Positions 18,937 to 41,389 of a stretch of DNA of 41,567 nucleotides are shown piece after piece; positions within the stretch are counted from its first letter, which is position 1; every line of letters begins with the position of its first letter. Both the position numbers and the translations under genes were made by a program. The notes beneath the pieces were generated by a model. The model did not search any database, had not been told where the DNA came from, and saw only the letters and a program-made list of their open reading frames with translations. Source of the DNA: Escherichia phage mEpX1; the sequence record NC_019709.1; one strand, given 5' to 3'.

Positions 18937-19043
18937 TTGTTTTGAGCGATCAATAACAAATAATTTATCTATCTAATCAATTATATCCATCGATTATGTA
19001 TTGGTATCTTCGAAGCTACTGAATACCTCTGGATACTATCAAA

Positions 19044-19277
19044 ATGAAAAGGCTAATTATCTGCATAGCGGGCGCTTTAATGCTGTCTGGTTGCGCTGGT
19101 GTACTTGAGAAACAGAAACCGATTTGCAGCGGCACGGCATATATGGGTGGCCATGAGAATACCGTTATGATTTACGCCGTTCGAAAGCAAAACAACCAGA
19201 CGCAATACCGGGCCGGATATCCCTTTAACTGGCGCTGGGTAAGTGCGAACACATTCACAAGCACGACATGTAAATAA
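19044..19277 (+). CDS. Small lipoprotein (moron; possibly Cor-like)
   Basis: 77 aa; signal peptide with lipobox L-S-G-C; AT-rich island between J-associated genes and tail fibre; terminator-like hairpin downstream. Confidence 0.5.
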   Translation: MKRLIICIAGALMLSGCAGVLEKQKPICSGTAYMGGHENTVMIYAVRKQNNQTQYRAGYPFNWRWVSANTFTSTTCK

Positions 19278-19296
19278 CTCATGATTTTCAATGCAA

Positions 19297-19319
19297 ACCT
19301 CGCCTCGGCGGGGTTTTTT
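19297..19319 (+). terminator. GC-rich hairpin plus T-run after lipoprotein gene
   Basis: cctcgcctcggcgggg followed by tttttt. Confidence 0.4.
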
Positions 19320-19335
19320 ATTGCCTGGAGAAAAT

Positions 19336-20553
19336 ATGCTTTATAACACTGGAACCATCGCCATTAACGGAAACAGCGCCACCGGCACGGGCACGAACTG
19401 GACGGCACCCGCCAGCCAGGTTCGCGCTGGCCAGACGATTATCGTGATGTCTAACCCGGTTCAGATGTTCCAGATTTCATCCGTGAACAGCGCCACGTCA
19501 ATGACGGTAACGCCTGCTGCATCACCGGCGCTGAGCGGCCAGAAATACGGGATTCTGATTACTGACAGCCTGTCAGTTGATGGGCTGGCTCAGAGCATTT
19601 CTCAGCTGATAAAAGAATACGATGAGAATATTGGGGCATGGGAATCTTTTGCCACTACCTCAGCAAACCAGAACATCACCGTTACCATCAATGGCACCCC
19701 TGTAACGATCCCCGGCATCGGCAAATTACTGCAGAAAGGGACAAATGGTGCACTGGCCGTAAAGGACGGCGGTACCGGCGCAACGAATGCTGCCGACGCT
19801 CGCACAAACCTCGGTTTAGACAAAACGGTAAGTACCGAAGGAGACCAGTCCATTTCAGGAGTGAAAAACTTCACTGGCACTTTCAAAATCACAGCAAACT
19901 ATCCGCAAGTCACTTTATGGGCTACATCCAAGCCAAACGGCACTTATGGCAGGGTAGTTACTTTTGGTAACGATGGCAATAAAGCATTCATTGCTGCAAG
20001 GCAATGGGAGGGCGGTAACAACACATGCGTGACCTATCTGCCCGCTTTTAAGGATGGATATTTCACATTCTGGACAACCTCAAACACGACAGTAACCTCT
20101 GATGGGACCATCAAGCAGGCGTCCCCCATTGCCAGAATCGTCAAGTCTGAGCAAGAGAATCAGCGAGCGGATGTTGGGGATGATGGATTCACGTGGTGCG
20201 GTTGCGGCACGTCTAACGCGGAGGCTGAGGGAGTATCCATTTCTCGCCTTGACGTAGGTGTTTACGTGATCACCGGCTCTGCAGGGCTGGCTTCCGAGGG
20301 CTGGCAATTACTACCACCGATGGACCCCGGCGGCATGGGGGAGTTGGGTATAGTCGAGGCAGAGCAAACCGACAACGGCGAGCTGACAATCCGCCTGTTT
20401 AGGCGCAAATATATTCTGAGCGATGAAGGAGAGATCGTCAAATCGAAAGGTGAACCGATGGACGTGCCGGCGAACAGCTGGATCGATGTTCGCCTTGGTA
20501 TGCCTGACGATTCCCTGTTTAACCAGCGGATGAGTCAGGATCCTCAGAAATAG
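19336..20553 (+). CDS. Side tail fibre protein (constant part plus currently expressed variable part)
   Basis: 405 aa from ATG 19336 (SD ggag); Gly/Thr/Asn-rich fibre-like composition; a gix-like crossover site lies in-frame at 19806-19817. Confidence 0.8.
   Translation: MLYNTGTIAINGNSATGTGTNWTAPASQVRAGQTIIVMSNPVQMFQISSVNSATSMTVTPAASPALSGQKYGILITDSLSVDGLAQSISQLIKEYDENIGAWESFATTSANQNITVTINGTPVTIPGIGKLLQKGTNGALAVKDGGTGATNAADARTNLGLDKTVSTEGDQSISGVKNFTGTFKITANYPQVTLWATSKPNGTYGRVVTFGNDGNKAFIAARQWEGGNNTCVTYLPAFKDGYFTFWTTSNTTVTSDGTIKQASPIARIVKSEQENQRADVGDDGFTWCGCGTSNAEAEGVSISRLDVGVYVITGSAGLASEGWQLLPPMDPGGMGELGIVEAEQTDNGELTIRLFRRKYILSDEGEIVKSKGEPMDVPANSWIDVRLGMPDDSLFNQRMSQDPQK
19799..19824. repeat. 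Invertase crossover site, left (gix/hix-like)
   Basis: Near-palindrome caaacc-tc-ggttta inside the fibre gene; matches the AAACC-NN-GGTTT core of Gin/Hin sites as I recall them. Confidence 0.6.
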
Positions 20554-21311
20554 TGGAACGCTGATTCCAGATGCTGTTCTGCGGCATCTGGACACGTACA
20601 GAAATATACTGGTCATATGGAATATCTACCGGATCGCCATCGTTGATACCCTGCAGTTCGTTCCTGGCAAATGCTGGCGCTCCAGGATGTGTGCGGTGAT
20701 AGGTTTTCACCAGCACCGAGCCATCTGCGTTGACCTCATAATCCAGCCAGATAAGCGGTTGCTTGTTGCGGTCGGTGGGGATGTCAAAACCGCCATTGAT
20801 GCCGCCCCAGGCCGCGTCAGAGTTAAGCCCCTCACAGCCTTCTACCAGAATTCACCTGTGGTCAGACGCGTTACGTTGCAGCCCTCCGATTCTTCATTGG
20901 TATGGTATGAGCCATCAGAAAAAACCTTTACCACAGGCGATGCGGCTTTTAGTGTGCCATCACTGGCCTTGGTCGTATTGCCGGTGGTGTATGCCTGCAC
21001 CCAGGAGGACCATTTAGATAGTGCCATACCCCTAGCGGCAATCCTGCCGTCAGAACTAATCTGAAGCTGACCAACGCTACCATTTCCATCTGAACCTCCA
21101 GTACGAGTCATGGCCAGAATGCCCGCGTACTGATCGAACCAGTTAACCCCCGTGCTACCACCACCGGATGAAAAGCCATTGTATTTAATCTCATTTGCAT
21201 CAGTGACGGCTGATGCGTTCAAATAGGTGGAACCAATACCAAAAGCCCCTACCTGAATTACGTTCCCCGCTAAAGAACCTACGTCCCTGATAGCACTACT
21301 TCCCAAACCGA
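19811..21311. other. Invertible DNA segment carrying alternative tail-fibre C-terminal regions
   Basis: Bounded by inverted crossover sites with identical central TC; convergent fibre coding regions overlap at 20519-20553; serine invertase gene adjacent. Confidence 0.6.
20519..20850 (-). CDS. C-terminal domain of the alternative fibre in a shifted frame
   Basis: Minus-strand frame offset -1 from Sv' encodes a domain homologous to the plus-strand fibre C-terminus (shared ...R-[VL]-x-MP-x-x-S-[LI]-[FW]-NQR... ending); Sv' hits a TAG at 20842-20844 where the other orientation reads through. Confidence 0.4.
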
Positions 21312-21317
21312 CATTTT
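20842..21317 (-). CDS. Alternative tail-fibre variable segment (Sv'), promoterless in this orientation
   Basis: Minus-strand frame opens right after the right crossover site; shares a TT-[GS]-NTT...SDGT-[IL]-K-x-ASP block with the plus-strand fibre; inversion would fuse it in-frame to the constant part. Confidence 0.6.
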
Positions 21318-21323
21318 ATAGAT
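21298..21323. repeat. Invertase crossover site, right (degenerate half-site)
   Basis: Minus strand reads aaaatg-tc-ggtttg, sharing TCGGTTT with the left site in inverted orientation. Confidence 0.5.
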
Positions 21324-21379
21324 TGCTCTTGAGTAGCCTGGCCGATAACTTCACCTGATTTTTTTGCAGAATTAACTGG

Positions 21380-21937
21380 GTGAAAAATATGCAAATTGGC
21401 TATGTAAGGGTGTCAACAAATGACCAAAATACAGATCTCCAGCGCCAAGCTCTCGAACGCGCAGGATGTGAACAGGTTTTTGAAGAAAAAATGAGCGGGA
21501 CGGTAGCGAACCGGCCAGCGCTCAAAAAGCTTCTGCGGACTCTGAATGCGGGCGATACACTGGTGGTGTGGAAGCTGGACAGGATAGGCCGCAACGTTCT
21601 GCATGCGCTGTTGATGTTCCAGCAGTTACAGGAAAAGGGTATCAACTTCCGCAGTATTACCGATGGCGTGGATCTCAAAACAGCCAGCGGCCGCTATAAC
21701 TTTCGTAACATCCTTTCCGCAGCACAATATGAATCTGATCTTAATAGCGAACGTACCTTAGCAGGGCTGGCCGTAGCCAGGGCAAAAGGGCGAGTTGGTG
21801 GTCGCAGGCCTAAGTTCACGGATGAGCAATGGCGGGAAATGGGGGAGCGGATGGCAACCGGTGAATCACGACAAAGCGTATCAAAAACGTATGGAGTAGG
21901 GCTCTCAACTCTGTATAAAAAGTTTCCAGCTAGCTAA
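21380..21937 (+). CDS. Serine DNA invertase (Hin/Gin/Pin/Cin family)
   Basis: 185 aa; N-terminal catalytic motif IGYVRVSTNDQ with nucleophile Ser, resolvase core, C-terminal HTH; adjacent to the invertible segment. Confidence 0.9.
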   Translation: MKNMQIGYVRVSTNDQNTDLQRQALERAGCEQVFEEKMSGTVANRPALKKLLRTLNAGDTLVVWKLDRIGRNVLHALLMFQQLQEKGINFRSITDGVDLKTASGRYNFRNILSAAQYESDLNSERTLAGLAVARAKGRVGGRRPKFTDEQWREMGERMATGESRQSVSKTYGVGLSTLYKKFPAS

Positions 21938-22260
21938 TAACGGGAAAGAAACAGAGAAGGGCACAAATATTGTGTACTTTAATGTGCCCTTTAATTTATT
22001 GATTGGTGGTTGAATTGTCCGTAACTTTTTGATTTAAGTGCAAATTTCTAATAAATTAGAACACTTTCTTAAATTGTCATTTGGCATATTACGAACAATT
22101 CCGCGTAAAAACGTTCTGTTACGCTAAACCCTTATCCAGCAGGCTTTCAAGGATGTAAACCATAACACTCTGCGAACTAGTGTTACATTGCGTGTAGCTT
22201 TGAGTGGGCAACTTTGTGTACACTTTTGTGTACCCAAAAACAAAAATGTGTACCCATTCA
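21938..22260. other. Probable attP region with repeated TGTGTAC motifs
   Basis: AT-rich noncoding stretch between invertase and integrase; TGTGTAC occurs at about 21971, 22216, 22227 and 22247. Confidence 0.4.
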
Positions 22261-23454
22261 ATGATCACAGACACAAAGCTCAGGAAGGCGCTCGGCAAGA
22301 AAAGAGATAATATCGAGATTATTTCTGATTCGCACGGGCTCAACGCCAGAATCAGCCAGGCCGGAAAAATATCATTTTTCTATCGGTATCGCTGGGCCGG
22401 TAAAGCGGTAAAACTCAATGTTGGTGATTATCCTGCAATGAGTATCACCCAGGCAAGAGAGCGTCGCCAACAATTCAGAAACTGGTTAACTGAGGGACTG
22501 GATCCGCGAGAGCAGGTGAAGCTGGATAAGCAGACCCGACAGGAAGCGATGTCCGTTGCCGAAGCGTTCAATTACTGGATTGAAAGGCACTGTATCGCTA
22601 ACGGGCTAGTTAAAGTCGATTACTATCGCCAGGTGTTTGAGAAACATATCGCCGAACCGATGAAGAATGTCAAAGTCGATAACACAGCGAAAATGCACTG
22701 GATCAACGTCTTCGATTCTATAGAAAGCAGGGTGATGGCTCATTACATGCTTTCGCTGTGCAAACGGGCGTTTAGGTTCTGCGTTAACAGAAGTGTGATC
22801 GCCTCAAACCCACTCGAGGGATTACTGCCATCTGATGTCGGGCAAAAGCCTAAAAAGAGAACTCGCAGGATGGACGATGACGATCTGCGCAAAATCTATC
22901 AGTGGTTGAAAAGCCATATGTCGATAGAGTCCGTTTTCCTGGTGAAATTTATTATGCTTACCGGATGCCGTACGGCTGAGATTCGACTTAGTGAGAGATC
23001 ATGGTTTCGATTGGATGATAATGAGTGGGTCGTGCCTGCGGGCAGTTATAAAACTCGGATACATATTAGAAGGGGACTCTCAGACGCCGCCGTTAACCTG
23101 GTCAGAAATCACCTCAAGAAAATAAACACCAATCACCTGGTGACTTCACAACGTAAAATTGATGGCGGGATCAAAGATTCGCCCGTTCATTCACCTGTGG
23201 CATCCAATTACGCCCGTTCTATTTGGAATGGAACAGGTATGGCAGAGTGGTCGCTTCATGATATGAGGCGGACGATAGCCACAAATCTCTCTGAGTTAGG
23301 TTGCCCGCCGCATGTAATTGAAAAGCTGCTCGGGCATCAGATGGTGGGGGTTATGGCGCATTACAACCTTCATGACTATATCGATGATCAGAAACACTGG
23401 CTCCGCGTTTGGCAGAGCCATCTTGAAGAGATCATCGGAGAGCCCTTCAGTTAA
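22204..23454 (+). CDS. int: Tyrosine integrase
   Basis: C-terminal catalytic region with LHDMRRT and HxxxxxxxHY motifs; probable true start ATG 22261 ([11 protein letters not shown]). Confidence 0.85.
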
Positions 23455-23648
23455 TTTATCTTCTTTTTATCCTCCCACTCTTTGATTGACTCAGAGCGCC
23501 AGCGGTTAGGGTTGCCGGGCCAGTCAGGGGGTGGGAACGGGCATACGAAGCCCCGAGGCATTGTGTCTGCACTTTGCCATGACCAAAGGGTTTTGCGTGA
23601 AATTTTGTAGCGACTGGTCAGGTCTGACGTTACCAAAATATCATCCAT
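23451..23648 (-). CDS. xis: Excisionase / AlpA-family DNA-binding protein
   Basis: ~65 aa from [24 protein letters not shown]; small HTH protein immediately after int on the opposite strand. Confidence 0.55.
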
Positions 23649-23689
23649 AGCTCTCTCCAGTTGCCCGTTCGGGCCATTCAAAATCTTTA

Positions 23690-24145
23690 TCAACCAACCT
23701 GTCCGGGCAGGGAGCGGAGACGGCGCTGTGCATCCCACAACAGGAACTGCATATCAGCCCACTCGCTGAGATCGTCAGGTTCGGCTGCGGCTTCCAGCTC
23801 AACGCGCAACTTCCCTACCGTTAGCGCAATATCCTCGTTCTCCTGATCGCGGCGTTTTATGTATTGCTGGTTTCTTTCCCGTTCATCCAGCAGCGCCAAG
23901 ACGGTAGCCGGATTGGCTGCGGCGATGAATTCAGCATTGGCCTGCTGTTCCATTTGGAAATCTTCATCGAAACCGCTTTCTGGATGCGCTCCTTCAATTC
24001 TGCAAATAGGAATATATCCAGCAACTTCACGGTGAATTAGCGCATCATCACCATTAAATCGGCCCTTTCCATATTCGAGCGACCACTCACCACACGTTGC
24101 TTTTTCTGCCGCTTCACGCAGTGCCTGATAGTCAATTTTGCTCAC
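23690..24145 (-). CDS. Hypothetical early-left accessory protein (ea22-like position)
   Basis: 151-aa acidic ORF in the leftward operon. Confidence 0.4.
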   Translation of the reverse strand: MSKIDYQALREAAEKATCGEWSLEYGKGRFNGDDALIHREVAGYIPICRIEGAHPESGFDEDFQMEQQANAEFIAAANPATVLALLDERERNQQYIKRRDQENEDIALTVGKLRVELEAAAEPDDLSEWADMQFLLWDAQRRLRSLPGQVG

Positions 24146-24642
24146 TGGTTGCCTCCTTTGCGAAGCTGGTCGGCGAACAAACGTACACTAGACGCTTCAC
24201 TGCGTAGAAACTTAACGGCATAATCAAAACCACCTCGTTCTGCGTCGTCTGCTCCGTTGTCGAGGTTATCTGCGTACATCTCTACCCCCTGCGCCCGTAC
24301 TTCAGCCAGGAAAGCATCGGTGGCTGGAGTTTCAGTAACATCATCTTCCCATTCGCTAAACTCCTCACGACAAAAGTCATTAAATTCCTTCTCAGATTGC
24401 TTAAACGAGGTATTTTCAGCAGCCATCTTCGCGCATTTAGCCTCAAGGTTATCAATCGTGATTCCAGCAGAACGACACTCCCGCAACGCCGTTTCCAGTT
24501 TTGATTCAAGTTCACCGAACTTACGGACAAGGTATTCAGCGTTTGTTTCGTTAACCTTTAAATCTCGTGGGATGCATTTACCTTTCAGAAATCCATCCAT
24601 CTCAATTAGTGACATTTGTTTCATTTCTTCCCACTCCGCCAC
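24142..24642 (-). CDS. Hypothetical protein
   Basis: 166-aa acidic ORF, stop/start overlap with neighbour. Confidence 0.45.
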
Positions 24643-24801
24643 ATCGCATTCAGATATTTGTTGTCATTAACAGAACCGAAACTATTTCTTTTAAGCAATT
24701 CCTCTCTCGATGGCATTGGCTTTACGCGTTGGCGAATAATCATTTCTGCCGGAAGAATGCCGGGATTGTATGCAAGTCCTCTCATGGTAAATTCCTCTTT
24801 G

Positions 24802-25116
24802 TTAATTTATTCGTATGCCTGCTCTTTCTTCATCGAGTTTTTTTAGCTTGTATCGCATAGCTCTTACTGAATAAATTGAGCGGCAGGTTGCAATTGCTAT
24901 TTCTTCTGCGGAGAACTTACCGAAAAGTGATACTTCGGCTCTTGTCCATCGTCTTCCACGAAGTCGGCTAACAATGTCAGCGCCAATCCTTGTTGCTTTC
25001 GCCATTACTGCTTTTTCAGTCCTTTCCAGTTTTTCAGCGATAACTTCAACTGGCATTGTCGCCGCTACTTCGCGCAAGAAATCGACTTCCCATTTCTCCC
25101 ATGGAGTCTTTTTCAT
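24802..25116 (-). CDS. Hypothetical protein with two internal helix-turn-helix-like repeats
   Basis: 104 aa; two similar W-x-x-x-E-V...EEIA...R-x-x-x-x-V segments. Confidence 0.45.
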
Positions 25117-25127
25117 AGGCGATACCG

Positions 25128-25616
25128 TTATTTGATAAGAAGTGAAGGTTTCCCAACCTTGAGTTGAGCGCCGGGGATATTTATTCCTGCTTTTAGTTGG
25201 TGCTTGATTGCCAACTTGTCGGCTTTAATTGTCGTTTCAAACTCAACGTATTCTTGAGGAATGGCGCTTGAGTCGATGATTTCTACAGTTTCTGACGGTT
25301 TGCGGATTGTTACCTGGTGGATACCTGCTCTAATCTTTTTCTTGCCAACCATTTCAAGCGATGACGCTATATACGCCATAATGCTGTCAATCTTATTTTG
25401 AATTACTGCTGCTCGTTCATTCAGTGACTTTGCCTCTTCCTTGAGGCGTTCAGCATAACCAGATTCATTTTTAATAATGGCAAGAAGTTGCTCTACTTTA
25501 TCGGTAAATTCTCCTTCCATGCCTTCTATTGTGTCAGCAATCATCTCTGGTTCTAAATCTGAATCCATCAATTTTGCGTATTCATTGGCAATTTCATACA
25601 GTTTGCTCACTGGCAA
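25128..25616 (-). CDS. Gp157-like protein
   Basis: 162-aa ORF immediately downstream of recT; recalled as a family that commonly accompanies RecT/Erf modules. Confidence 0.45.
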   Translation of the reverse strand: MPVSKLYEIANEYAKLMDSDLEPEMIADTIEGMEGEFTDKVEQLLAIIKNESGYAERLKEEAKSLNERAAVIQNKIDSIMAYIASSLEMVGKKKIRAGIHQVTIRKPSETVEIIDSSAIPQEYVEFETTIKADKLAIKHQLKAGINIPGAQLKVGKPSLLIK

Positions 25617-26505
25617 CCTCCAGTTTCGCTTTGCATTCTATGTAAATGGCTTGTACGTTCTGCTGCAATTTCATTCCAGATGTCAGGCGATATGCTTCTG
25701 CAAAATATCGCTTCAAATCATCCATGTTTTCTGCCTGAGCCATTTCATCGCAAAGAAGTTGTGCTTTATCCATTATTTCCTGCTGGCGTTTCCGTTCATC
25801 TTCGCGGATATCTTCCTCTGATTTGTGCGGCATAACTGGCTCAGTCCATACACCTTCTTCTTCGTTTAGTACGTGAATAGCACTATCAAGACGTGATGCC
25901 TTAGGCCAATACTTGCTTGCACGCTTTACGACCGTCTTTCGCGCCATCTCATTCCAGTGATTTACCCATGGTCCTTTATCGCTGAATGCTGCCTTGCTTG
26001 TTTTCCTTACAGCCTCAATTTCAGCCAGACTCATCTCTTCCGTTAGATAATCACCTGCTGGCGTCTTAACTGTGCAGTAAACACCAACGATATCGCCACG
26101 ATCACCGAAGGCGTTGTATTTATGGGTTGGTGCTTTATCAAGCCCGTTTGACTCATAGGTATCGTTAGCATGAACAAGTTTTGCCTGACCCCATGAGATA
26201 ACACCAGACTCCATTGCAATATGGAGCAATCCCATATAGCTGATATCAAGGCAAACCATGCCGTCGCGAGGAACCAGATAAGCCAGTTTGCTAGCCGGGT
26301 TTAAGGTGATACCGATCGCCGCAACATTGATGATGGCGTTCTGTGCGCTGGTTGGATTTGCCAGTGCTGTTTTAGCCAGGTAATCGTTTTTCTGGAAATA
26401 CTGAATTGCAAACTGGCTTTCCTTAGCCCATGTCACCGTCTGTTCAGTCAATGCTCCGCAGAATAACTGCTCTTGCTGTTTAACGAATTCAACGATATTG
26501 CTCAT
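25594..26505 (-). CDS. recT: RecT-family single-strand annealing protein
   Basis: 303 aa with RecT-like conserved blocks (NPTSAQNAIINVAAIGITLNP, AYLVPR); early-left operon position. Confidence 0.8.
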   Translation of the reverse strand: MSNIVEFVKQQEQLFCGALTEQTVTWAKESQFAIQYFQKNDYLAKTALANPTSAQNAIINVAAIGITLNPASKLAYLVPRDGMVCLDISYMGLLHIAMESGVISWGQAKLVHANDTYESNGLDKAPTHKYNAFGDRGDIVGVYCTVKTPAGDYLTEEMSLAEIEAVRKTSKAAFSDKGPWVNHWNEMARKTVVKRASKYWPKASRLDSAIHVLNEEEGVWTEPVMPHKSEEDIREDERKRQQEIMDKAQLLCDEMAQAENMDDLKRYFAEAYRLTSGMKLQQNVQAIYIECKAKLEVASEQTV

Positions 26506-26813
26506 GCAGCTTCTCCATAAATATGTCTGCGTTTGAATATTGCGAAGGCATATTCAGCCTTAACTCTTTCGGTTATTGCATCCCAGAACCATTCAGCGGC
26601 TTTTTCCTGATAGTTACAGTCATCATCTTCCAGCCAGTCGATAGCGTCCTTAGTGTGTTCATCTGGTTTATATGAGCGAAGCATTTCGCTTATTGGGTCG
26701 CAACGTTTGCAGAGGCGATCAACTTCACTGTTGATTCGCTCGTAATCTTCATCAGTAAAACTTGCGATTATTTGCGATATTTCACGCTTATCATTCAGAG
26801 TCAGAATCATCAT
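26502..26813 (-). CDS. Hypothetical protein
   Basis: 103-aa ORF coupled to recT start. Confidence 0.45.
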   Translation of the reverse strand: MMILTLNDKREISQIIASFTDEDYERINSEVDRLCKRCDPISEMLRSYKPDEHTKDAIDWLEDDDCNYQEKAAEWFWDAITERVKAEYAFAIFKRRHIYGEAA

Positions 26814-26894
26814 CTTTCTCCTGTTCTTTGTGCTGATTGAGCATTTTGTTCATCTGACGAATGAATTCTTCGTCTGACCAGTTATCTGCAAAAC

Positions 26895-27065
26895 TCATGG
26901 ACGTCCTTGTTGTTTCAAAATATCCCAAAGCTTTTCGAGCAAACTTTTCATTCTTGGTTGTTTAAAATCTGCTCCGGTTAAAATATTTTTTCGTGAATGC
27001 TGTACCGATAAAATCGGGTTGAAAGGGCGAACCGATGCCGCCCCTGCAATAGCGAACTGTTGCAT
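26895..27065 (-). CDS. cIII: CIII-like protein
   Basis: 57 aa from ATG 27065 (SD ggag); MQQFAIAG...KLWDILKQQGRP resembles lambda CIII MQYAIAG...LIDILNQPG as recalled. Confidence 0.6.
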   Translation of the reverse strand: MQQFAIAGAASVRPFNPILSVQHSRKNILTGADFKQPRMKSLLEKLWDILKQQGRP

Positions 27066-27299
27066 AGGATGCTCCTTCTGTTTGATTGCATAACGAAAAC
27101 GCCTCGAGTGAAGCGTTATTGGTATGCATATAAAAAGGCCCTCACACTGGAGGGCAAAGAAGATTTCCAATAATCAGAACAAGTCGGCTCCTGTTTAGTT
27201 ACGAGCGACATTGCTCCGTGTATTCACTCGTTGGAATGAATACACAGTGCTGTGTTTATTCTGTTGTTTATGCCAAAAATAAAGGCCGACTATGCGGCC

Positions 27300-27482
27300 T
27301 CAGAATGGTTTGTATCCATGTTTAAAGGCGAAATCGTATGCCTCATCCTTAGTGCTGAAGTATTCATAATCAGCAAATCCATCACGATAAAACTTGCAGC
27401 ACCAATGAGGCGGAATGCCATCCTCAGGGCCATAGTTTTGATGGAAAACATCCTCGACGATTATATTTTCATCTTTTCCCAT
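27300..27482 (-). CDS. Hypothetical protein
   Basis: 60-aa ORF in the early-left operon. Confidence 0.35.
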   Translation of the reverse strand: MGKDENIIVEDVFHQNYGPEDGIPPHWCCKFYRDGFADYEYFSTKDEAYDFAFKHGYKPF

Positions 27483-27813
27483 ATCTCACCTCAAATAAGT
27501 GGTTTGCTGCGAAAGTAAATACGCTTAAGTTACCTGTTATTTATCCCACCAAGTTCCGCATCTATCTATCCAGTTACACCAATCATCGACACTCCATTTT
27601 GTTGTGTCGCATTTTGGCAACTGGCATGAATATCTACCTTCTTTGTAAAGTCGGCGTTTGACTTTCTTGAGCATGGCTCACCTCAATCGTAATAAGCTGG
27701 AATTGATTTTCTGCGTTGCTTCTGGCGGCCTGAGCAAGTCACACCCATTTCACAGCGTGGCTTGCGGTAGTAAATTAGGTTTGTTCAGACAATAAAAAAC
27801 CCACCGAAGTGGG

Positions 27814-28158
27814 CTATGACCATTTTTTATTTGGATTTCGTTGGTGAGCGTGATTAACAACTCTGTGCATTACATCCTCATATTTTTCATCTTCAATTTT
27901 TTCGACATCGCGAGGAAATGGTGTTGCTAATGCTTTGTCAACTTTGTCCATTGGTTCTTCATTAATCTTATATTCAGGACCGTCATCTATAGCATTAAAT
28001 CCAGGTGTTACACCGTTTTTTAATGCATATGCTATCCTTTTTTCCCATCTCGCTATTCTCCTCCTGTCTCGAGATGTAAGACCTCTATCAGATACTTTTC
28101 TGTTTTGTCCGCGGTCAGGATTAACATAAATAGTCTTTTTCACCATAAGCATACTCAA
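27814..28158 (-). CDS. Hypothetical protein
   Basis: 114-aa basic ORF coupled to the N-like gene. Confidence 0.45.
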   Translation of the reverse strand: MSMLMVKKTIYVNPDRGQNRKVSDRGLTSRDRRRIARWEKRIAYALKNGVTPGFNAIDDGPEYKINEEPMDKVDKALATPFPRDVEKIEDEKYEDVMHRVVNHAHQRNPNKKWS

Positions 28159-28460
28159 TAAGCACCGTACGGTAGTTTACTGTACAATTTTATTTTTTGG
28201 ACTGCATGTATTTTGTTTCCTAATGGGTTTGAATCTTTGTAATAAATACTTCTATTTTTTCGAACGACTTCTTCTTTCTTCTTGCAGCAAAGTCTTCCTA
28301 GTGATGCTGCTTTGTCTGCTCTGACGCAACCAGAGAGCTTTAGCGCAATTTTTCGCGCCAGTGCTTCATTACTGCGTCGCTCGGCAATAAGTTCTGCTCT
28401 GCGAGCTTTGTAGCGGCTTTTTGCCGTACCTTTGGATTCTTTCCAGACAATGGTTACCAT
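28155..28460 (-). CDS. N-like transcription antiterminator (Arg-rich motif)
   Basis: First leftward gene after nutL; N-terminal Arg-rich motif KSRYKARRAELIAERR; start ATG 28460 with SD aaggag. Confidence 0.5.
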   Translation of the reverse strand: MVTIVWKESKGTAKSRYKARRAELIAERRSNEALARKIALKLSGCVRADKAASLGRLCCKKKEEVVRKNRSIYYKDSNPLGNKIHAVQKIKLYSKLPYGAY

Positions 28461-28570
28461 GATGGTCTCCTTTAAGTGGCTTTGGCGCATGACGCGTCGA
28501 GGTGCTTATCTTCTCGATCGCTGTCTTGCAGCTGCAATTCGCGCCATCCCCAAAACCACTCAAGTTCTGG

Positions 28571-28610
28571 TCTCAACGGTTAGGTTGAGAGTCCGTCGAT
28601 GTTAAAGAGC
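28571..28610 (-). promoter_or_regulatory. nutL candidate (boxA plus boxB)
   Basis: Minus strand reads GCTCTTTAAC (boxA-like), spacer, then hairpin tctcaac-CTAACC-gttgaga; loop identical to the nutR candidate. Confidence 0.5.
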
Positions 28611-28654
28611 CTGCCAATCTGTTCCTTGTGGCGTCTCAGCGTCCTGCTGATGGA

Positions 28655-28735
28655 AATGATAGTCACATATTGTGATTTAATGGTCAATCACAAAATGTGT
28701 AAAATAAAGGTGTGACACGTTATGTGTATGATTTT
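28655..28735 (-). promoter_or_regulatory. OL operators with PL promoter
   Basis: Three dyad-symmetric sites of the form ATCACA-N3-TGTGT (tcacatattgtga; atcacaaaatgtgtaa; gtgtgacacg), nearly identical to sites at OR. Confidence 0.55.
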
Positions 28736-28935
28736 TTTGTGTAAATAGTTTTACCCGCGATGGTTTTGCTTACTTAAGTCGGTGGCAACAGCAGGATGGG
28801 TGCTGAAAAGTTCGAAAAACGAGCGAATGGGGTGGTGGCGAGATGGCGGGATATGGGAGTTGTATTAAGAATTATAGTAATTTAATCAATAGTTTGGACC
28901 GGCTGGCAGGTGCTGTCCTGATAGTGATCGGCGGG

Positions 28936-28962
28936 CAATAAAAAACCCGGCGCGGTGGCCGG
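28936..28962 (-). terminator. Intrinsic terminator ending the cI-cassette transcript
   Basis: Minus strand: stem cccggc/gccggg with caccgc loop then ttttttatt, 9 nt after the stop of the 310-aa gene. Confidence 0.6.
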
Positions 28963-28970
28963 GTGAGATA

Positions 28971-29903
28971 TTAAAGAACCGATTTAACAAGATGGTTTTT
29001 ACGGTACAGACCTATGCGATCATTGTGAATCTCAGTAGTCTCCACTAAAAGAGAAACAATCTGTCCGACCTTGTGTTTTTTTTGTATTAAATCTAGCATT
29101 TCAATTGGATAGGAAGCCTTTAAATGTTCACCACCAACATCAAGCTCCAGCTTCCCATATTTGGATAGAACGACCAGTTCGCCTGTAACCGTTTCAGTAA
29201 TGGGAGGGGATGAAATGGTTGATGTAAGTCTACTCACCAAGTACTTAATTTTATTGGAGTCAATAGTTGCCACCTTGGTGCCATTACTAAATGGACCGGT
29301 CCAACTTGCATCAAATGTTAAGTTGTGTTTATCGCATTCCTCTACGATTCTCTTAAGGCTTACAGTGGAATTGTATCCAATTTCAGCGACGTGATTCATG
29401 AAGTTGTTGTCGTCATCGCTTAACAACAAATCGAATATGCCTTTTACAGCCTTGCTGGGTACTGTTTCTACTAATTCTGCTATTCCTGTAGAGAAGGTGA
29501 CGCCCAATTTTGTAGACCCAGGGGATAAATCAGCCAGCCTGAGGTTTAAGGAGCTTTTCACGTCGTAGGGAACTTTTTTTGAGTCCTTGCCTGAGGCAAT
29601 TTTGTGTGTTGCTCTTTGTATTAGCGCTGCAAGATTTGTTGAAATAGCCCCAAGCAGCTCTAAAGGAATAGAGCCAAAGTCAACCTCAGAGCCTTTCAGC
29701 CGCAGCTCAAAAAAATCGATAAGTGGGTGCCGACTATCTTGCTTTAATTTTTCGGCCTTCAAATCGCTCAGATGAGAATCCATGGAGCGATAAAGAAGCA
29801 TGTCAGCAAAAGACCTGGTTTTGTTTTGCTTCATTGCATCGACTTCTTTTTGAATGAAATCAATGCGTTTATCGCAATTTTTAAACATTGATTTATCATT
29901 CAT
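28971..29903 (-). CDS. Hypothetical 310-aa protein, partner of the NTase-like gene (no recognisable motifs)
   Basis: AT-rich ORF; start overlaps upstream stop (ATGA); no TM helices or catalytic motifs seen by eye. Confidence 0.6.
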   Translation of the reverse strand: MNDKSMFKNCDKRIDFIQKEVDAMKQNKTRSFADMLLYRSMDSHLSDLKAEKLKQDSRHPLIDFFELRLKGSEVDFGSIPLELLGAISTNLAALIQRATHKIASGKDSKKVPYDVKSSLNLRLADLSPGSTKLGVTFSTGIAELVETVPSKAVKGIFDLLLSDDDNNFMNHVAEIGYNSTVSLKRIVEECDKHNLTFDASWTGPFSNGTKVATIDSNKIKYLVSRLTSTISSPPITETVTGELVVLSKYGKLELDVGGEHLKASYPIEMLDLIQKKHKVGQIVSLLVETTEIHNDRIGLYRKNHLVKSVL

Positions 29904-30379
29904 AAAAAAATCCTCACTAACCCTTTCGGGTTTTCACTGCGATCAAAACCAAACCAACCGCGCCAGTAGCTACGCCAGTACTCATAATCATAGTTAGGGT
30001 CATCTAAATTCTTCATGAGTAGTAGGACATCAATTTTGTAGTTTTGTTTGATGTAGTTTCGGTCAAGCAAATTATCGACGCGGCCCCGAAGCATGACAGG
30101 TATTGAGTTTATATTGCTATAGTCACATACCAACAAAATATCAATATCATCAGGCTCTGGTTTAGACGTGGTGTATGAACCATCAACCCATATTTCTGTA
30201 AAACAGCCATATTGAGCAGATAATTCTCGAATAGATTCGAGTAGCTGTATAAAATTACAGTATAGCATGCCTCGCCTGGATGATGAAGGAAAGCAATCGA
30301 CACAATACGATTTTAATCCAGCTTCATCCATGTCATGGAACCCTGGCTCAAACAGGGGTGGGTAATTAATTTTATCCAT
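29900..30379 (-). CDS. Small protein with polymerase-beta-type nucleotidyltransferase signature
   Basis: 159 aa; GS-x9-DIDILLV (VDGSYTTSKPEPDDIDILLV) plus a downstream acidic strand (KIDVLLL); AT-rich; SD agg 7 nt before ATG; immediately downstream of cI. Confidence 0.55.
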   Translation of the reverse strand: MDKINYPPLFEPGFHDMDEAGLKSYCVDCFPSSSRRGMLYCNFIQLLESIRELSAQYGCFTEIWVDGSYTTSKPEPDDIDILLVCDYSNINSIPVMLRGRVDNLLDRNYIKQNYKIDVLLLMKNLDDPNYDYEYWRSYWRGWFGFDRSENPKGLVRIFL

Positions 30380-30528
30380 AAAAAACCTTGCTATACATTT
30401 GTTTTTTTTATTAAAAATCTAACCACCGAAATGGTGACGGCAAGATGTTACATGGGGTTACAATCAGCCAATACACCGCATTAAATAATTTTTTCACCAG
30501 CTATGCGCCGACCAGAACACCTTGCCGA

Positions 30529-31176
30529 TCAGCCAAACGTCTCTTCAGGCCACTGCGCCTTAACTACCTTGCCTATGATGCGGCAGCTATGGTCGCAATC
30601 CAGGGTTCTATATGCCGGGTTTAAAGGTACCAGGTAACTAACCCCTGCATCCTTCTCATACTTCTTGAACGTTGCCTCTGAATCACCATTTGCAGAAGCC
30701 ACGCAGAAATCCCCAGACTCTACCGGCTCAGCCGGATCAACGAGTATCAGCATGCCTTCCGGAAAACTTGGACGAACCCCCTGAGGCGCCGTCATTGAAT
30801 GCCCCTTCACCTCAAGCCAGAAAGCTTTTTCGCTGGCTTTTGTGGTCGTTGGGACCCATGCCTTTGCATCGCTGGCTGTGTAGCTTCCCACCTCCGAAAA
30901 TGGCCCGGCCTGCACTGAAGAAAATAACGGGTATTCATATTGGCGAAATACGGCGTCTGAATCCTCGCCAAACATTATTTTTGCCGGAGATACGCCGAGT
31001 GCCGCCCCAAGAACCAGCGCGTCATCCGCGCTAACCTTTCTTGTTCCTAACTCGTAGTTCCCCAGGCGTGAAGGCGCAGCCCAGCCGCAAAGCTTGGCCA
31101 ATTGAGCCTGGCTAAGTCCTTTAGCTTCTCTAAGGGACTTTATCCTTTCCCCGATAATTTCATGCATCGTTTTCAT
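30529..31176 (-). CDS. cI: CI-type repressor (HTH plus S24 LexA-like peptidase)
   Basis: N-terminal HTH ([11 protein letters not shown]), Ala-Gly cleavage site (VQAGP), catalytic Ser (GHSM) and Lys (IGKVV); divergent from cro across OR. Confidence 0.85.
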
Positions 31177-31183
31177 CCCTTAA

Positions 31184-31270
31184 ATGTAACACGCAACGTG
31201 ATTGAACTCTGTACACGAATTGAGGTTGACTGTTAATCACAAATTGTGTGTAATGGGTGTGTGATTAATG
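31184..31270. promoter_or_regulatory. OR operators with divergent PRM and PR promoters
   Basis: Dyad sites acacgcaacgtgat, aatcacaaattgtgtgtaa and gtgtgtgattaa; PR candidate TTGACT (31226-31231), 17 bp, TGTAAT (31249-31254). Confidence 0.6.
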
Positions 31271-31284
31271 CTAGGGAGACCGCA

Positions 31285-31503
31285 ATGAACAAAATTGCCC
31301 AGCAGCGAAAAAAAATCGGAGTTTCGCAAGCTGTACTAGCTTCGGCAATTGGTTGGGGGCAATCCCGCATCGCCAACTATGAGCTGAATATCCGTACTCC
31401 TGGCCTTAACGATTGCCGAATGATCGTAGAAGGCCTCAGGAAGTTAGGGTGCCAATGTTCTTTGGATGATGTTTTCCCTCCATCCAGTAACAAAGCCGCC
31501 TAA
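31285..31503 (+). CDS. cro: Cro-like repressor
   Basis: 72 aa from ATG 31285 (SD gggagac); HTH (IGVSQAVLASAIGWGQSRIANYE); divergent from cI. Confidence 0.7.
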   Translation: MNKIAQQRKKIGVSQAVLASAIGWGQSRIANYELNIRTPGLNDCRMIVEGLRKLGCQCSLDDVFPPSSNKAA

Positions 31504-31510
31504 GCAGTAC

Positions 31511-31560
31511 CCGCTCTTTAACAGTCATGGCCTTTCACCTCTAACCGGGTGAGCAAACAT
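31511..31560 (+). promoter_or_regulatory. nutR candidate (boxA plus boxB)
   Basis: CGCTCTTTAACA (boxA-like) then hairpin cacct-CTAACC-gggtg; same loop as nutL. Confidence 0.5.
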
Positions 31561-31620
31561 CAGCGGCAAATCCATTGGGTGTGCCGCTATAACTCAATAT
31601 CAATATAGGAAAATTAACAA

Positions 31621-31917
31621 ATGGCACAAGCAAGCTACAGCAAGCCAACACAGCGAGAAATTGATCGCGCTGAAACTGATTTACTCATCAACCTGTCAAC
31701 GCTTACCCAGCGCGGTCTGGCAAAGATGATTGGCTGTCATGAATCGAAGATAAGCAGAACGGACTGGAGATTTATTGCTTCGGTCTTGTGTGCTTTCGGA
31801 ATGGCATCAGACATCAGTCCGATTAGCAGGGCTTTTAAGTATGCGCTTGATGGAATCACAAAGAAAAAATCCCCGGCCGCCACCGAGGATTTTAAGCAAA
31901 TTGATATGCAATTCTGA
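31621..31917 (+). CDS. cII: CII-like transcriptional activator
   Basis: 98 aa; HTH region and C-terminus KKKSPAATEDFKQIDMQF resemble lambda CII (...KKRPAATERSEQIQMEF) as recalled. Confidence 0.75.
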   Translation: MAQASYSKPTQREIDRAETDLLINLSTLTQRGLAKMIGCHESKISRTDWRFIASVLCAFGMASDISPISRAFKYALDGITKKKSPAATEDFKQIDMQF

Positions 31918-31949
31918 GGGAATTACTGGATCAATCCACAGGAGTCATT

Positions 31950-32795
31950 ATGACAAATACAGCAAAAATACTCAACTTCGGCAGAGGTAACTTTGCCGAA
32001 CAGGAGCGAAGAGTGGCTGATATCGATGATGGTTACACCAGATTCGCTAACGAGCTGCTGGAAGCTATCGCAAGTGCCGATTTAACCGCTCGCCAGTTGA
32101 AAGTTATGCTGGCCTACGTCCGGAAAACATATGGATTCAATAAGAAAACAGATCGAATAGCCGATGAGCAAATTTCTCAGTTAACAGGACTGTCAAGGCA
32201 GAATGTTAACAAGGCTAAAAAAGAACTGATTTCAATGAATTGCCTGTTTATGGATGGAAATCAAATCGGTGTAAACAGGGAGGTATCTGCGTGGCAATTC
32301 AGCAAGTGTCTCCAAGTTAGCAACTTTGTCTCGAAGTTAGAGACAAAAAATGTCTCCAAATTAGAGACACTCAATGTCTCGAAGTTAGAGACACACAAAA
32401 GACATTCTTTAAAGACAAAAGAAAATATTAATAAACCCCCTATATCCCCCAAAAAAGTTTCTCAGAAGTTCGACCCGCTAGAAACAGAGTTGCCTGATTG
32501 GTTATCAGCAGAAACATGGTTGTCGTGGGTTACCTATCGCAAGGAGATAGGTAAGTCGATCAAGTCTAAGCAAAGTGTCACTCAGGCTATCAACGTTCTA
32601 AGCAGAAGTCTGGAGAAGGGATATACACCTGAAGAAATTATAAACCAGAGCATCGCCAGTGGTTGGCAGGGGATTTTTGAACCCAAGACTCCAAAGGGGA
32701 AATCTCAACCGAGGCCGCAGCAGCGAGCTATGCAGGAAAACTTTACCGCCAAAGATTACGGGCAAACTGAAATGCCTTCATGGGCGCAGGAGTGA
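31950..32795 (+). CDS. O: Replication initiator O
   Basis: 281 aa; iterons are embedded in the coding sequence as in lambda O; followed by helicase loader gene. Confidence 0.8.
   Translation: MTNTAKILNFGRGNFAEQERRVADIDDGYTRFANELLEAIASADLTARQLKVMLAYVRKTYGFNKKTDRIADEQISQLTGLSRQNVNKAKKELISMNCLFMDGNQIGVNREVSAWQFSKCLQVSNFVSKLETKNVSKLETLNVSKLETHKRHSLKTKENINKPPISPKKVSQKFDPLETELPDWLSAETWLSWVTYRKEIGKSIKSKQSVTQAINVLSRSLEKGYTPEEIINQSIASGWQGIFEPKTPKGKSQPRPQQRAMQENFTAKDYGQTEMPSWAQE
32307..32394. repeat. Replication origin iterons inside O
   Basis: Four ~19-bp direct repeats, each an internal dyad (tgtctc-[gc]-aa-[ga]-ttagagaca), followed by an AT-rich stretch at 32395-32440. Confidence 0.75.
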
Positions 32796-32797
32796 AT

Positions 32798-33691
32798 ATG
32801 AATACGACAAATGGTTACAATCTGGCACTGCAAAGGCAACTTGTAGACTCAAAAATCAATGACATTTCTGATCTGAAACAGAAACTTGAGTTTAGCAAAA
32901 TTGGATCAGCATCAGATGGAATGTCAGTTACCAGCACAGTGGAAGAGTGCGAGAAACACGGTAAATATACTTCCTATGAGAAATATCTGACCATCTCAGG
33001 AAAAAGAATTACTTCAAGTAAATCTGAGTGCCCACAGTGCCTTGAGGAGAAAATTCGTAAGAAAGAGATTGAACGTGAGCAGGCAGAACAAAGAGCAAGA
33101 CAATCAAAAATTGAATATTTGTTGAATTCTCTCAATATTCCAGAGAGGTTCAAAAATTGCACTCTTCAGAATTATGAGCCTGTTAACGATGATGCAAAGC
33201 GAGTTCTTAAGGTATGCCAGGCATATGCCAGTAAGTGGCCTGAACGCCTTCAAAAAGGTGGCGGACTGGTCATGTGTGGTAAGCCTGGAACTGGAAAGAA
33301 CCACCTTGCACTGGCTATCGCTAGGCACGCCATTATCGAGCATCAAAGCTCTGTGATATTTACCACTGCGTTGAAAATTGCCAGAGAGTACAAATCAACA
33401 TGGTCTAAGGCCGCAACCAGAACTGAAGAAGAAGTCATTAGGCAATTTACGCATCCTGACTTGTTAATAATCGATGAGGTTGGCGTGCAGTTCGGCAGTG
33501 ATGCTGAAAAGCTAATCATGTTCGAAATTATCAACACCAGATATGAATACATGAAGCCAACAATCCTGATTAGTAATCAGAGCAAAGATGAACTGTCTGC
33601 ATTCATTGGTGAGCGTGTTATTGACAGGATGAATGATGGCGGCGGGTGCACTCTTGCGTTTACATGGGATAGTTACAGGAGCAGATCGTGA
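32798..33691 (+). CDS. DnaC-like helicase loader (AAA+ ATPase)
   Basis: Walker A GKPGTGKNHLA and Walker B LLIIDEVG; start overlaps O stop; track ORF starts at 32780. Confidence 0.8.
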   Translation: MNTTNGYNLALQRQLVDSKINDISDLKQKLEFSKIGSASDGMSVTSTVEECEKHGKYTSYEKYLTISGKRITSSKSECPQCLEEKIRKKEIEREQAEQRARQSKIEYLLNSLNIPERFKNCTLQNYEPVNDDAKRVLKVCQAYASKWPERLQKGGGLVMCGKPGTGKNHLALAIARHAIIEHQSSVIFTTALKIAREYKSTWSKAATRTEEEVIRQFTHPDLLIIDEVGVQFGSDAEKLIMFEIINTRYEYMKPTILISNQSKDELSAFIGERVIDRMNDGGGCTLAFTWDSYRSRS

Positions 33692-33978
33692 CTGGAAAAG
33701 AAATCATCCTGGAATATCTGAAAACTCATGAACAATTCTCCCCACATGAATTAGCACTGATCACAGGAATACCAAATAACAGAATCGCTCAAGCAGCAAG
33801 GCATATGGTGAAACAAGGGCATTTGAGTGTTGTTGAGCGTAAGTGGAAGACGGTTATTTATGCAAAACGCAAAGTGAAGAAGGAGCCAATTAAAAGAAAT
33901 CCAGATGGTACTGGGTGGGGATGTGCAAATCCAATGACGGCGTTTATTAATAGGGCGCTTATGGAGGTAAGGCAATGA
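33688..33978 (+). CDS. Hypothetical winged-helix-like protein
   Basis: 96-aa basic ORF coupled to the loader gene stop. Confidence 0.4.
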   Translation: MTGKEIILEYLKTHEQFSPHELALITGIPNNRIAQAARHMVKQGHLSVVERKWKTVIYAKRKVKKEPIKRNPDGTGWGCANPMTAFINRALMEVRQ

Positions 33979-34050
33979 CCATCTACATCACTGAGCTAAT
34001 AACAGGCCTGCTGGTAATCGCAGGCCTTTTTATTTGGGGGAGAGTAAATC

Positions 34051-34257
34051 GTGGCTGAGTTGATTTTCTCTGCATTGAGGATTCTCGGTGCTATGTGGAT
34101 GGTGGCGACGTTCATTGTGGTTGCTGGCTGTTTTGTCCTGTTGGTAGGCGAAGGTAAAGACCTGGTGGGTGTGCTTTTCGGTAGCATTTTTCTGTGGGTG
34201 ATTATCGGTGTTATGCCTGTTGTCGTAGCAAAAGTGGCGTGGCGTTTTGTGAGTTGA
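34051..34257 (+). CDS. Small membrane protein (two predicted TM helices)
   Basis: 68 aa, GTG start with SD ggggagag; two hydrophobic stretches. Confidence 0.45.
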   Translation: MAELIFSALRILGAMWMVATFIVVAGCFVLLVGEGKDLVGVLFGSIFLWVIIGVMPVVVAKVAWRFVS

Positions 34258-34264
34258 GGTAACG

Positions 34265-34675
34265 ATGAAGCAAACAATCTTCCTCCGAACTAAGCAACAA
34301 CAGCAAGCCGCAATCAACGCCATCCTCGAAACTCCTCTCGATAAAGACAAGCCAGTCACCATCCGCATTACTGACTACAAGCGCAACCTTGACCAGAACG
34401 CAAAATTTCACGCGATGCTGGCGGATATCGCACGTCAGGTTCAATGGTGCGGAAAATGGTTAAAACCGGAACAATGGAAGGTTTTGTTGATCAGCGGTCA
34501 TGCAGTGGCAACAAAGCAGGAAGCTGATGTTTTGCCCGGCCTTGAAGGCGAATACGTCAACATTAGGGAGAGCAGCGCACAGATGAGCGTGAAGCGTATG
34601 GCAAGTCTGATCGAGTACACAACAGCATGGGCTATTGGTCAGGGTGTCAGATTTACCGACAGGAGGTACGAATGA
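34265..34675 (+). CDS. ninB: NinB
   Basis: 136 aa; matches the lambda NinB pattern as recalled ([27 protein letters not shown]). Confidence 0.8.
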
Positions 34676-37193: not shown

Positions 37194-37299
37194 CAGCATG
37201 ATTGCCACGGATGGCAACATATTAACGGCATGATATTGACTTTTTGAATAAAGTTGGGTAAATTTGACATCAACGATGGATAAATGCACTCGTTAAATA

Positions 37300-38844: not shown

Positions 38845-38874
38845 TTTTTTTGCAAATCACAAAGTCCATTTAAT

Positions 38875-41384: not shown

Positions 41385-41389
41385 CGCGG

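Follow-up and report, generated by a model that had tools for sequence, protein, structure and literature searches.

Does Escherichia phage mEpX1 exchange the end of its side tail fibre by DNA inversion? The question is raised by a locus in record NC_019709.1, where a serine recombinase gene lies beside a tail-fibre gene and a second, opposed fibre-like coding region. The whole record was analysed (41,567 bp, referred to here as the window; all positions are given in it). The comparisons described below make it very probable that the locus is an inversion system of the Gin/Cin/Pin family that switches the distal (C-terminal) part of the side tail fibre. With less assurance, the segment of mEpX1 itself is probably still inverting, given that its enzyme is intact and under purifying selection, the cores of its two sites are identical and the enhancer-like sequence is retained. 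The part of the fibre that would stay in place is called here the constant part, the variable cassette joined to it in the sequenced orientation V1, and the silent cassette on the opposite strand V2.

The two crossover sites carry most of the argument. When the window was searched with the family consensus CAAACCNNSRTTT, two matches without a mismatch were found, and both were the sites that an initial annotation of this DNA had proposed; compared with known invertase sites, they were gix-like. The left one lies inside the fibre gene, as had been claimed, with the inner match AAACCTCGGTTT at 19806-19817 and the core dinucleotide TC at 19811-19812. The right one reads CAAACC-GA-CATTTT on the plus strand (21304-21317) and AAAATG-TC-GGTTTG on the minus strand, the full 26-bp site being ATCTATAAAATG-TC-GGTTTGGGAAGT on the reverse strand. 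AAACC ends three of the four half-sites, the weak one being AAAATG. The two cores are identical (TC/TC) in inverted orientation, and both sites stand at positions homologous to those of the sites of phage Mu, prophage e14, phage LLS and E. coli prophages.

The reading frame is preserved across both sites. Since the fibre open reading frame (ORF; 19336-20553, 405 aa) starts at 19336, the left core occupies positions 2 and 3 of a Leu codon, CTC (19810-19812), which reads ...ARTNL|GLDKTV in the coding context ...DARTNLGLDKTV. On the minus strand, the TC of the right site occupies positions 2 and 3 of a GTC codon followed by GLGSSAIRDVG. Translation thus bore out the earlier claim that the same dinucleotide lies in the same codon phase in both frames. 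With the core at positions 2 and 3 of the Leu codon in N-L-G-L, either cassette would join the constant 159 aa in frame; accordingly, the fusion computed from the constant part and the reverse complement of the segment (...ARTNLGLGSSAIRDVG...) was in frame, in agreement with the fusion without frame change that had been foreseen.

The predicted recombinant junction was also found in nature. A metagenomic contig (L014) encodes a protein, P0001, whose full-length identity to the predicted mEpX1 fusion is 85-87%, and the junction in this contig, CGCACAAACC-TC-GGTTTGGGAAGTAGTGCTA, is the one predicted for the flipped form, here with an intact V2-like cassette.

Inversion between homologous sites was apparent among close relatives of the locus in E. 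coli. The chromosomes of strains CX04, CX05, CX07, CX15 and CX21 are almost identical, those of CX07 and CX15 having 4,949,018 bp each. Their prophage beside yciI uses the same attachment site as mEpX1 and encodes an invertase 99% identical to that of the phage. Between CX07 and CX15, a 2,325-bp segment of this prophage was cleanly inverted at 99.9% identity with collinear flanks. The bounds of the inversion were the site in the fibre gene and the site adjoining the invertase gene, and the fibre protein changed from WP_223610796 to WP_223613333. The yejM-side prophage has three cassettes and three sites in the same two strains, which differ there by an inversion of the stretch from site 2 to site 3. 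The right site and invertase module of mEpX1 is 98.5% identical to the prophage copies that flank segments found in both orientations.

Further features of these relatives were recorded. After inversion, the yciI prophage of CX07 (L008 2189-2216; CX15 counterpart, L007 2184-2211) has TT in its left core and GA, equivalent to TC, in its right one, a mismatch that should block or derail further inversion. The three sites of the CX15 yejM prophage lie at L004 1718, 2655 and 4680, and in such three-site relatives the second site comes directly after the stop codon that ends the expressed fibre gene (TGAATAAAGG-TC-GGTTTGGG), a post-stop sequence with which contig L014 also ends. Phage Phi06_2987 S (L015) also has three cassettes, of which the silent, invertase-proximal one has a V1-like C-terminal domain. 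Judged from their arrangement, the three-site, three-cassette relatives (CX15 yejM, Phi06_2987 S) have a Min- or shufflon-like layout.

The recombinase, described initially as a Hin/Gin-type serine invertase at 21380-21937, proved to be of this family. The protein matched PF00239 (E = 5.7e-40) and PF02796, and its residues 1-181 aligned with the Mu Gin structures 3UJ3 and 4M6F (E = 3e-63), Ser9, YVRVSTNDQ and other family-conserved positions being present. Its identity was 57% to Gin, 61% to PinE of e14 and 62% to Fin of LLS. Over residues 66-182, the comparison with the homologue of strain H6 gave 0.019 nonsynonymous (dN) and 0.36 synonymous (dS) substitutions per site (dN/dS, ~0.05), values that point to strong purifying selection on the enzyme within its clade.

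Comparison of the gene (21389-21937) with L015 1549-2112, L005 4425-4973 and the proteins P0144-P0235 indicated that the invertase is a chimera, with residues 1-65 of the Gin/Pin kind and residues 66-182 from a separate, conserved enterobacterial clade. Thus, residues 1-65 are 100% identical to those of the Phi06_2987 S enzyme, and the sequence from residue 66 on (IGRNVLHALLMFQQLQEKGINFRSITDGVDLKTASGRYNFRNILSAAQYESDLNSERTLAGLAVARAKGR...) is near-invariant in hundreds of protein clusters from Escherichia, Citrobacter, Klebsiella, Enterobacter, Serratia, Salmonella and other genera. Members of this clade share the motifs ...IGRNVLHALLMFQQLQEKG...GRYNFRNILSAAQYESDLNSERT... and usually begin with MIYGYARVSTNHQDTELQR... 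or MIYGYARVSTNHQ.... The join lies within the shared motif LVVWKLDR, and the breakpoint pattern of strain H6 is slightly different. Residues 66-182 include the oligomerisation helix and the DNA-binding domain as well as the remainder of the catalytic domain. In helix E, FFFHVM of Gin, PinE and LLS Fin is replaced by YNFRNI, and AEMERELII by AQYESDLNS, with loss of hydrophobic residues; in Hin and Gin, hydrophobic residues of this helix hold the enzyme in an inactive dimer. At codon 134, just ahead of the GGR minor-groove arm, the E. coli prophage invertases (L001, L007, L012) have Trp (AKWRVGG); the residue is Gly in mEpX1, Gin, PinE and all other members of the clade that were examined.

A putative recombinational enhancer was located within the 5' end of the invertase gene. 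Two Fis-core-like 15-mers with G...C boundaries occupy nucleotides 22-36 and 71-85 of the gene, the stretches where we take the enhancer of gin and hin to lie. Their centres are 49 bp apart, and the centre of the first is 106.5 bp away from that of the right site. Each of the two agrees with the corresponding stretch of Mu gin at 14/15 nucleotides, with equal spacing and without insertions or deletions; since the same DNA encodes a conserved catalytic motif, this conservation is not independent proof of an enhancer. The AT-rich spacer words ATTTA and TAATG, given for the Hin enhancer in PMC3798978, fit such a placement in hin. In Hin, the helix-B basic residues that face the enhancer are 47, 48 and 51 (PMC3798978). 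The basic residues are kept in mEpX1 as K46, K47 and R50 (Gin numbering) because they are located in the Gin-like N-terminal part, and typical members of the donor clade have Ala at the third of these positions.

With regard to the fibre, the gene product matched the tail fibre family phrog_1591 (E = 1.5e-129), and residues 2-97, in the constant part, matched the N-terminal part of the phage depolymerases 7LZJ and 7VYV. In V1, the domain PF25670 ('phage tail protein C-terminal domain') was found at residues 250-390 (E = 1.9e-32), and it was for this C-terminal domain only that V1 had relatives. In collections of phage and E. coli genomes, no DNA relative of the first ~290 nt of V1 (19813-20100, ~95 aa, LDKTVSTEGDQSISGVKNFTGTFKITANYPQV...) was found. 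Exact patterns taken from the beginnings of V1 and V2 had no match in IMG/VR, nor had a degenerate V1-junction pattern in GTDB genomes; the latter pattern gave two matches in JGI metagenomes, both of which proved on inspection to be unrelated chance matches. Neither a second copy of the unique N-terminal part of V1 nor a directly flipped mEpX1 was found in these IMG/VR, GTDB and JGI scans. An AlphaFold2 model of the C-terminal 159 aa of V1, built with 40 homologues as input, was all-beta and mediocre (predicted local distance difference test, pLDDT, 65; predicted template modelling score, pTM, 0.62), and a Foldseek search of the PDB with this end-domain model gave nothing at E < 0.3. The sole solved entry matching the PF25670 domain (20074-20550) in sequence was the C-terminus of SU10 gp12, a proximal long-tail-fibre protein, of which only residues 1-90 are built, leaving the PF25670 region unresolved. 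With that domain unbuilt and the model without a fold match, a receptor-binding role for PF25670 is not claimed on structural grounds; the domain may bind a receptor or, alternatively, serve to dock another protein.

The segment was initially described as a ~1.5-kb stretch with convergent fibre coding regions. Its length (1,497 bp) and the opposed cassettes agree with this description, as does the 35-bp overlap of their 3' ends, which follows from the stop positions (Table 1); the minus-strand part, in turn, is not one ORF, owing to a 1-nt deletion. The first frame of V2 runs from 21309 to 20845 and ends at a TAG at 20844-20842 (...RLTTGEFW*), and a second frame runs on (...LVEGCEGLNSDAAWGG...SSAG*) to the stop at 20521-20519, so that PF25670 is split over two frames (profile positions 1-44 and 89-133). 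Aligned with the intact L014 cassette, V2 showed 89% nucleotide identity and a single 1-nt gap (mEpX1 GGTGAAT-TCTGG vs ...CAGTATCTT...). The sequence of mEpX1 at the lesion is GAATTCTGG, and the base-restored forms would be GAATTTCTGG or GAATATCTGG; the V2 homologues examined were all open at this point, reading GEYLIEGC or GQYLIEGC. A programmed frameshift was considered and dropped, as it found no support and the relatives are simply open there. The flipped fibre as sequenced would have 314 aa and lack most of PF25670 (positions ~45 to 133). With one base restored it would have 422 aa and align along its entire length with more than 100 homologues, all intact (full-length proteins P0001-P0120). 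Thus, a second complete variable part, as in the Mu G and P1 C segments, is absent because of the premature TAG, and the deletion implies that this isolate would toggle between a complete and a defective side fibre and not between two host ranges.

No Tfa-like (tail-fibre assembly) ORF and no corresponding Pfam or PHROG domain was found within 19813-21309. In this respect the initial annotation was right, and the novelty it saw in the difference from Mu and P1 was overstated, the absence being a class trait and the layout of LLS having been described already. Phage mEp234 has a side fibre of the same class (ARTNLGLGS..., with a PF25670-type end) without a tfa gene and without an invertase; its fibre gene is followed directly by attP and int, and its DNA at the motif is a slightly degenerate AAACC-TT-GGTCT. 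As mEp234 and LLS have fibres of this class without tfa, the missing Tfa is a trait of the PF25670 fibre class and not of the switch. At the same position, the cassettes of other E. coli prophages come with Tfa genes or end in S74 intramolecular chaperones; the system is therefore modular.

On the model of the family, the switch would work as follows. Invertase dimers would bind the two 26-bp sites (19799-19824 and 21298-21323), which would synapse, probably on an enhancer bound by Fis (a role assumed from the family) in the first ~90 nt of the invertase gene. Staggered 2-bp cuts at the TC/GA cores, a 180-degree rotation of one half and religation would then invert 19813-21309. The late operon would transcribe the constant part, and the cassette abutting the left site would be translated as the distal fibre. 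The sequenced orientation would thereby yield the complete 405-aa fibre, made of the constant part and V1, and the flipped orientation the constant part followed by V2, with a stop after 314 aa. No Tfa chaperone would be needed, since the fibre class has none.

Several observations weigh against this proposal, and three other explanations were considered. That two convergent fibre-like ORFs simply lie beside an unrelated resolvase, the resemblance being due to chance and without site-specific inversion, has next to no probability. As a plain inverted repeat (12 nt, 83%), the site pair was indeed no better than background, 15 other pairs in the same 1.7 kb being as good, and its significance rests on the consensus match and the homologous position and not on the length of the repeat. 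However, the sites are the unique matches to the family consensus in the window, their positions are homologous and their cores complementary, the module around the right site is nearly identical to copies that flank segments found in both orientations, and the predicted junction exists in L014; in our judgement these comparisons effectively refute a chance resemblance. A decaying relic, that is, a former switch now locked in the V1 orientation whose invertase is kept for another reason or transiently, is a minority possibility. The silent cassette is broken by its frameshift, and the right outer half-site reads CATTT in mEpX1 and CGTTT in all relatives (AAACC-GA/AA-CGTTT in CX15, H6, L010, LLS and e14), a unique G-to-A change; the two lesions together may be a sign of decay. 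In addition, mEpX1 has the same orientation in both database records. The W619 prophage (L001 3339-5797) has an intact invertase 99% identical to that of mEpX1, no left site in its fibre gene, no silent cassette and a degenerate right half-site (CAAACG-GA-CGTTTT); its invertase is thus an orphan, and such loci do decay to this state. The TT and TC cores of CX07 imply that locking mutations do occur in the family. Against decay stand the intact invertase ORF with its low dN/dS, the identical TC cores, the three half-sites ending in AAACC and the retained enhancer-like cores, and natural sites of the family tolerate variation next to the core, as in the outer half of hixR.

Two further points weigh against the proposal. 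The CX strains also carry a second invertase, of the classical type, that could act in trans, and the inversions seen in them are therefore no proof of activity of the mEpX1-type enzyme. Residues Q151, R154 and L155 of Hin, in helix 1 of the DNA-binding domain, are conserved in Fis-dependent invertases and have been proposed as a Fis contact (McLean et al.; PMC3798978); the corresponding positions in mEpX1 are E, E and R, the patch reading W-R-E-M-G-E-R-M vs W-E/A-Q-A-G-R-L-L/I in Gin, PinE and LLS. This patch is variable across the clade that donated residues 66-182. It is conceivable, and on present sequence data rather improbable, that invertases of the chimeric clade are activated differently, being Fis-independent or contacting Fis or another factor via a different surface; if so, the clade would be a natural counterpart of the laboratory 'hyperactive' mutants of Gin and Hin. 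A last alternative retains the switch and discounts the lesion: the frameshift in V2 would be a sequencing or assembly error or a mutation of the laboratory stock, and the wild phage would alternate two complete fibres as a working host-range switch. A single 1-nt gap in an otherwise open cassette without any other lesion, together with a repaired ORF that aligns over its whole length with its many intact homologues, speaks for it. PV340543.1, however, lacks the same base, its identity to the window being 100% in both stretches compared, and we consider this alternative unlikely. An inversion system that, as sequenced, has one complete and one broken cassette is the reading that we prefer.

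Table 1. Coordinates of the fibre, site and invertase features of the mEpX1 inversion locus in the window
Feature	Positions	Strand or placement	Details
Constant N-terminal part of side tail fibre	19336..19812	+	aa 1-159, ending ...DARTNL; includes tail-attachment domain
Variable cassette V1, expressed in the sequenced orientation	19813..20553	+	aa 160-405 plus stop; C-terminal part, PF25670
Left 26-bp crossover site (candidate)	19799..19824	inside fibre ORF	CTCGCACAAACC-TC-GGTTTAGACAAA; core TC 19811-19812; encodes N-L-G-L
Silent variable cassette V2 (LGSSAIRDVG...)	20519..21309	-	frameshifted; three-frame translation
1-nt deletion in V2	20849..20850	-	mEpX1 GGTGAAT-TCTGG vs relatives ...TATCT...
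Antisense overlap of V1 and V2 3' ends	20519..20553		35 bp; stops 20551-20553 (+) and 20521-20519 (-)
Right 26-bp crossover site (candidate)	21298..21323	adjoins invertase gene	ACTTCCCAAACC-GA-CATTTTATAGAT; core GA 21310-21311
Predicted invertible segment	19813..21309		1,497 bp between cores; 1,499 bp centre to centre
Serine DNA invertase	21389..21937	+	182 aa; alternative GTG start 21380; Pfam Resolvase and HTH_7
Putative recombinational enhancer	21410..21473	+	Fis-core-like 15-mers GTGTCAACAAATGAC (21410-21424) and GCGCAGGATGTGAAC (21459-21473)

A second record of Escherichia phage mEpX1, PV340543.1, places the phage, a lambdoid siphovirus, in the genus Cuauhtlivirus. The stretches of it compared correspond to 19000-22074 and 22078-41567; its differences from the window are a permutation and ~5 bp at the ends, with 19.5 kb at 100%. 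It may not be an independent sequencing of mEpX1, and its agreement may thus not confirm the frameshift independently. Its annotated gene order is tail-tip protein J, two small proteins, Cor, 'side tail fiber protein', a minus-strand 'hypothetical protein' and 'DNA invertase', and it is only under the last two names that the public record of mEpX1 refers to the parts of the switch. The prophage-form record ends ~140 bp past the invertase gene. Position 22077 is where homology with the E. coli prophages inserted beside yciI ends, and the prophage-form record stops there too; the integrase at 22204-23454, which has an Arm-DNA-bind_3 domain, thus belongs to the phage itself, and within the late region the invertase gene occupies the attP-proximal end. 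The attP core was placed around 22056-22077, just upstream of the integrase gene. Between cor and the fibre gene, a strong terminator-like hairpin (19295-19316; 9-bp stem, then a T-run) was observed, the equivalent of which is annotated as a rho-independent terminator in sister phages; given this position, expression of the fibre gene and of the DNA downstream presumably needs antiterminated late transcription.

If the proposal holds, mEpX1 would be a further example of programmed tail-fibre switching, within the well-used laboratory mEp phage collection. Stocks and lysogens of the phage may mix complete and truncated side fibres, and adsorption or host-range measurements could be affected. 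The 1-nt lesion in V2 is reminiscent of the stf frameshift in laboratory lambda. More widely, the relatives show that many E. coli prophages have taken up the Tfa-less fibre class into inversion systems of two or three cassettes, and cassette flips between sibling isolates matter for prophage typing and assembly comparison. The clade of chimeric invertases is, in addition, a lead on natural variation in Fis dependence.

Among the known systems, the G segment of Mu with its invertase Gin resembles the mEpX1 locus in having the invertase gene immediately to the right of the segment and 26-bp sites with a TC/GA core. Read from the Mu genome, the sites are gixL, TTATCCAAAACC-TC-GGTTTACAGGAA, and its inverted copy. 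As in mEpX1, the left site falls within the fibre gene, where it is translated as N-L-G-L and TC takes codon positions 2 and 3, and the likeness extends into the cassette (GGAAACGGTAAAC in Mu and CAAAACGGTAAGT in mEpX1). The two differ in that the Mu segment has 3.06 kb in the arrangement Sv-U / U'-Sv', with one chaperone gene per cassette, whereas that of mEpX1 has 1.5 kb and two cassettes only. Moreover, the Mu sites are perfect inverted copies, and those of mEpX1 have little in common apart from AAACC-NN-(G/C)(G/A)TTT; Mu is a myovirus and mEpX1 a lambdoid siphovirus; and Gin, at 57% identity, has a different Fis-contact patch. The C segment of P1 with Cin, Min of p15B and Hin of Salmonella likewise rely on a small serine invertase that acts, with a Fis enhancer, on 26-bp sites having a 2-bp core. 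Min carries out multi-site shuffling, to which the three-cassette relatives compare, Hin switches a promoter and not a fibre, and the P1 segment carries Tfa-like genes.

In e14, the left site also lies in the fibre gene, GAAAACC-TT-GGTTTGGGAGAA encoding ENLGLGEG (AAAACC-TT-GGTTTGGG), and the right site is CCCAAACC-AA-CGTTTATGAAAA, with the outer half CGTTT. The design that the initial annotation had worked out is therefore the one already known for the family. From mEpX1, e14 differs in its TT/AA core and in its chaperone genes, tfaP and tfaE. Both e14, which is annotated as cryptic, and the prophages beside yciI and yejM, in which a tail protein J of the lambda type is encoded, bear an invertase. 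In MG1655, flipping of the e14 segment is continuous, and flipping of fibre segments has been measured in E. coli prophages, including a system with three inverted repeats (IRs) and three alternative C-termini (PMC4272514). Three sites and three cassettes are found in many E. coli prophage versions of the locus, some of them with S74 intramolecular-chaperone ends or Tfa.

Phage LLS (PQ299149) is, like mEpX1, lambdoid, with two adjacent, opposed fibre genes, no Tfa and an adjoining invertase gene. Its GenBank record annotates IR-L, IR-R and a 'serine-type DNA invertase Fin' around the two fibre genes, and its authors propose Mu/P1-like tip switching (PMC12315714). The layout of two fibre genes and an invertase without Tfa is therefore not new, having been annotated and discussed for LLS. 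The repeats contain AAACCTCGGTTTGGGAAGTAG... and ...CCCAAACCGACGTTT (IR-L, AAACCTCGGTTTGGGAAG...; IR-R, ...CCCAAACCGACGTTT), and the fibre gene LLS_22 matches part of V2 at 80% nucleotide identity. The LLS repeats are 57 bp long, whereas the likeness of mEpX1 is confined to the core site; Fin is of the classical Gin/Pin type throughout, in contrast to the chimera of mEpX1, with which it shares 62% identity; and both LLS cassettes are annotated as open, whereas V2 is frameshifted. By these sequence comparisons, the switch of mEpX1 is closest to those of LLS and of the E. coli prophages at the yciI site.

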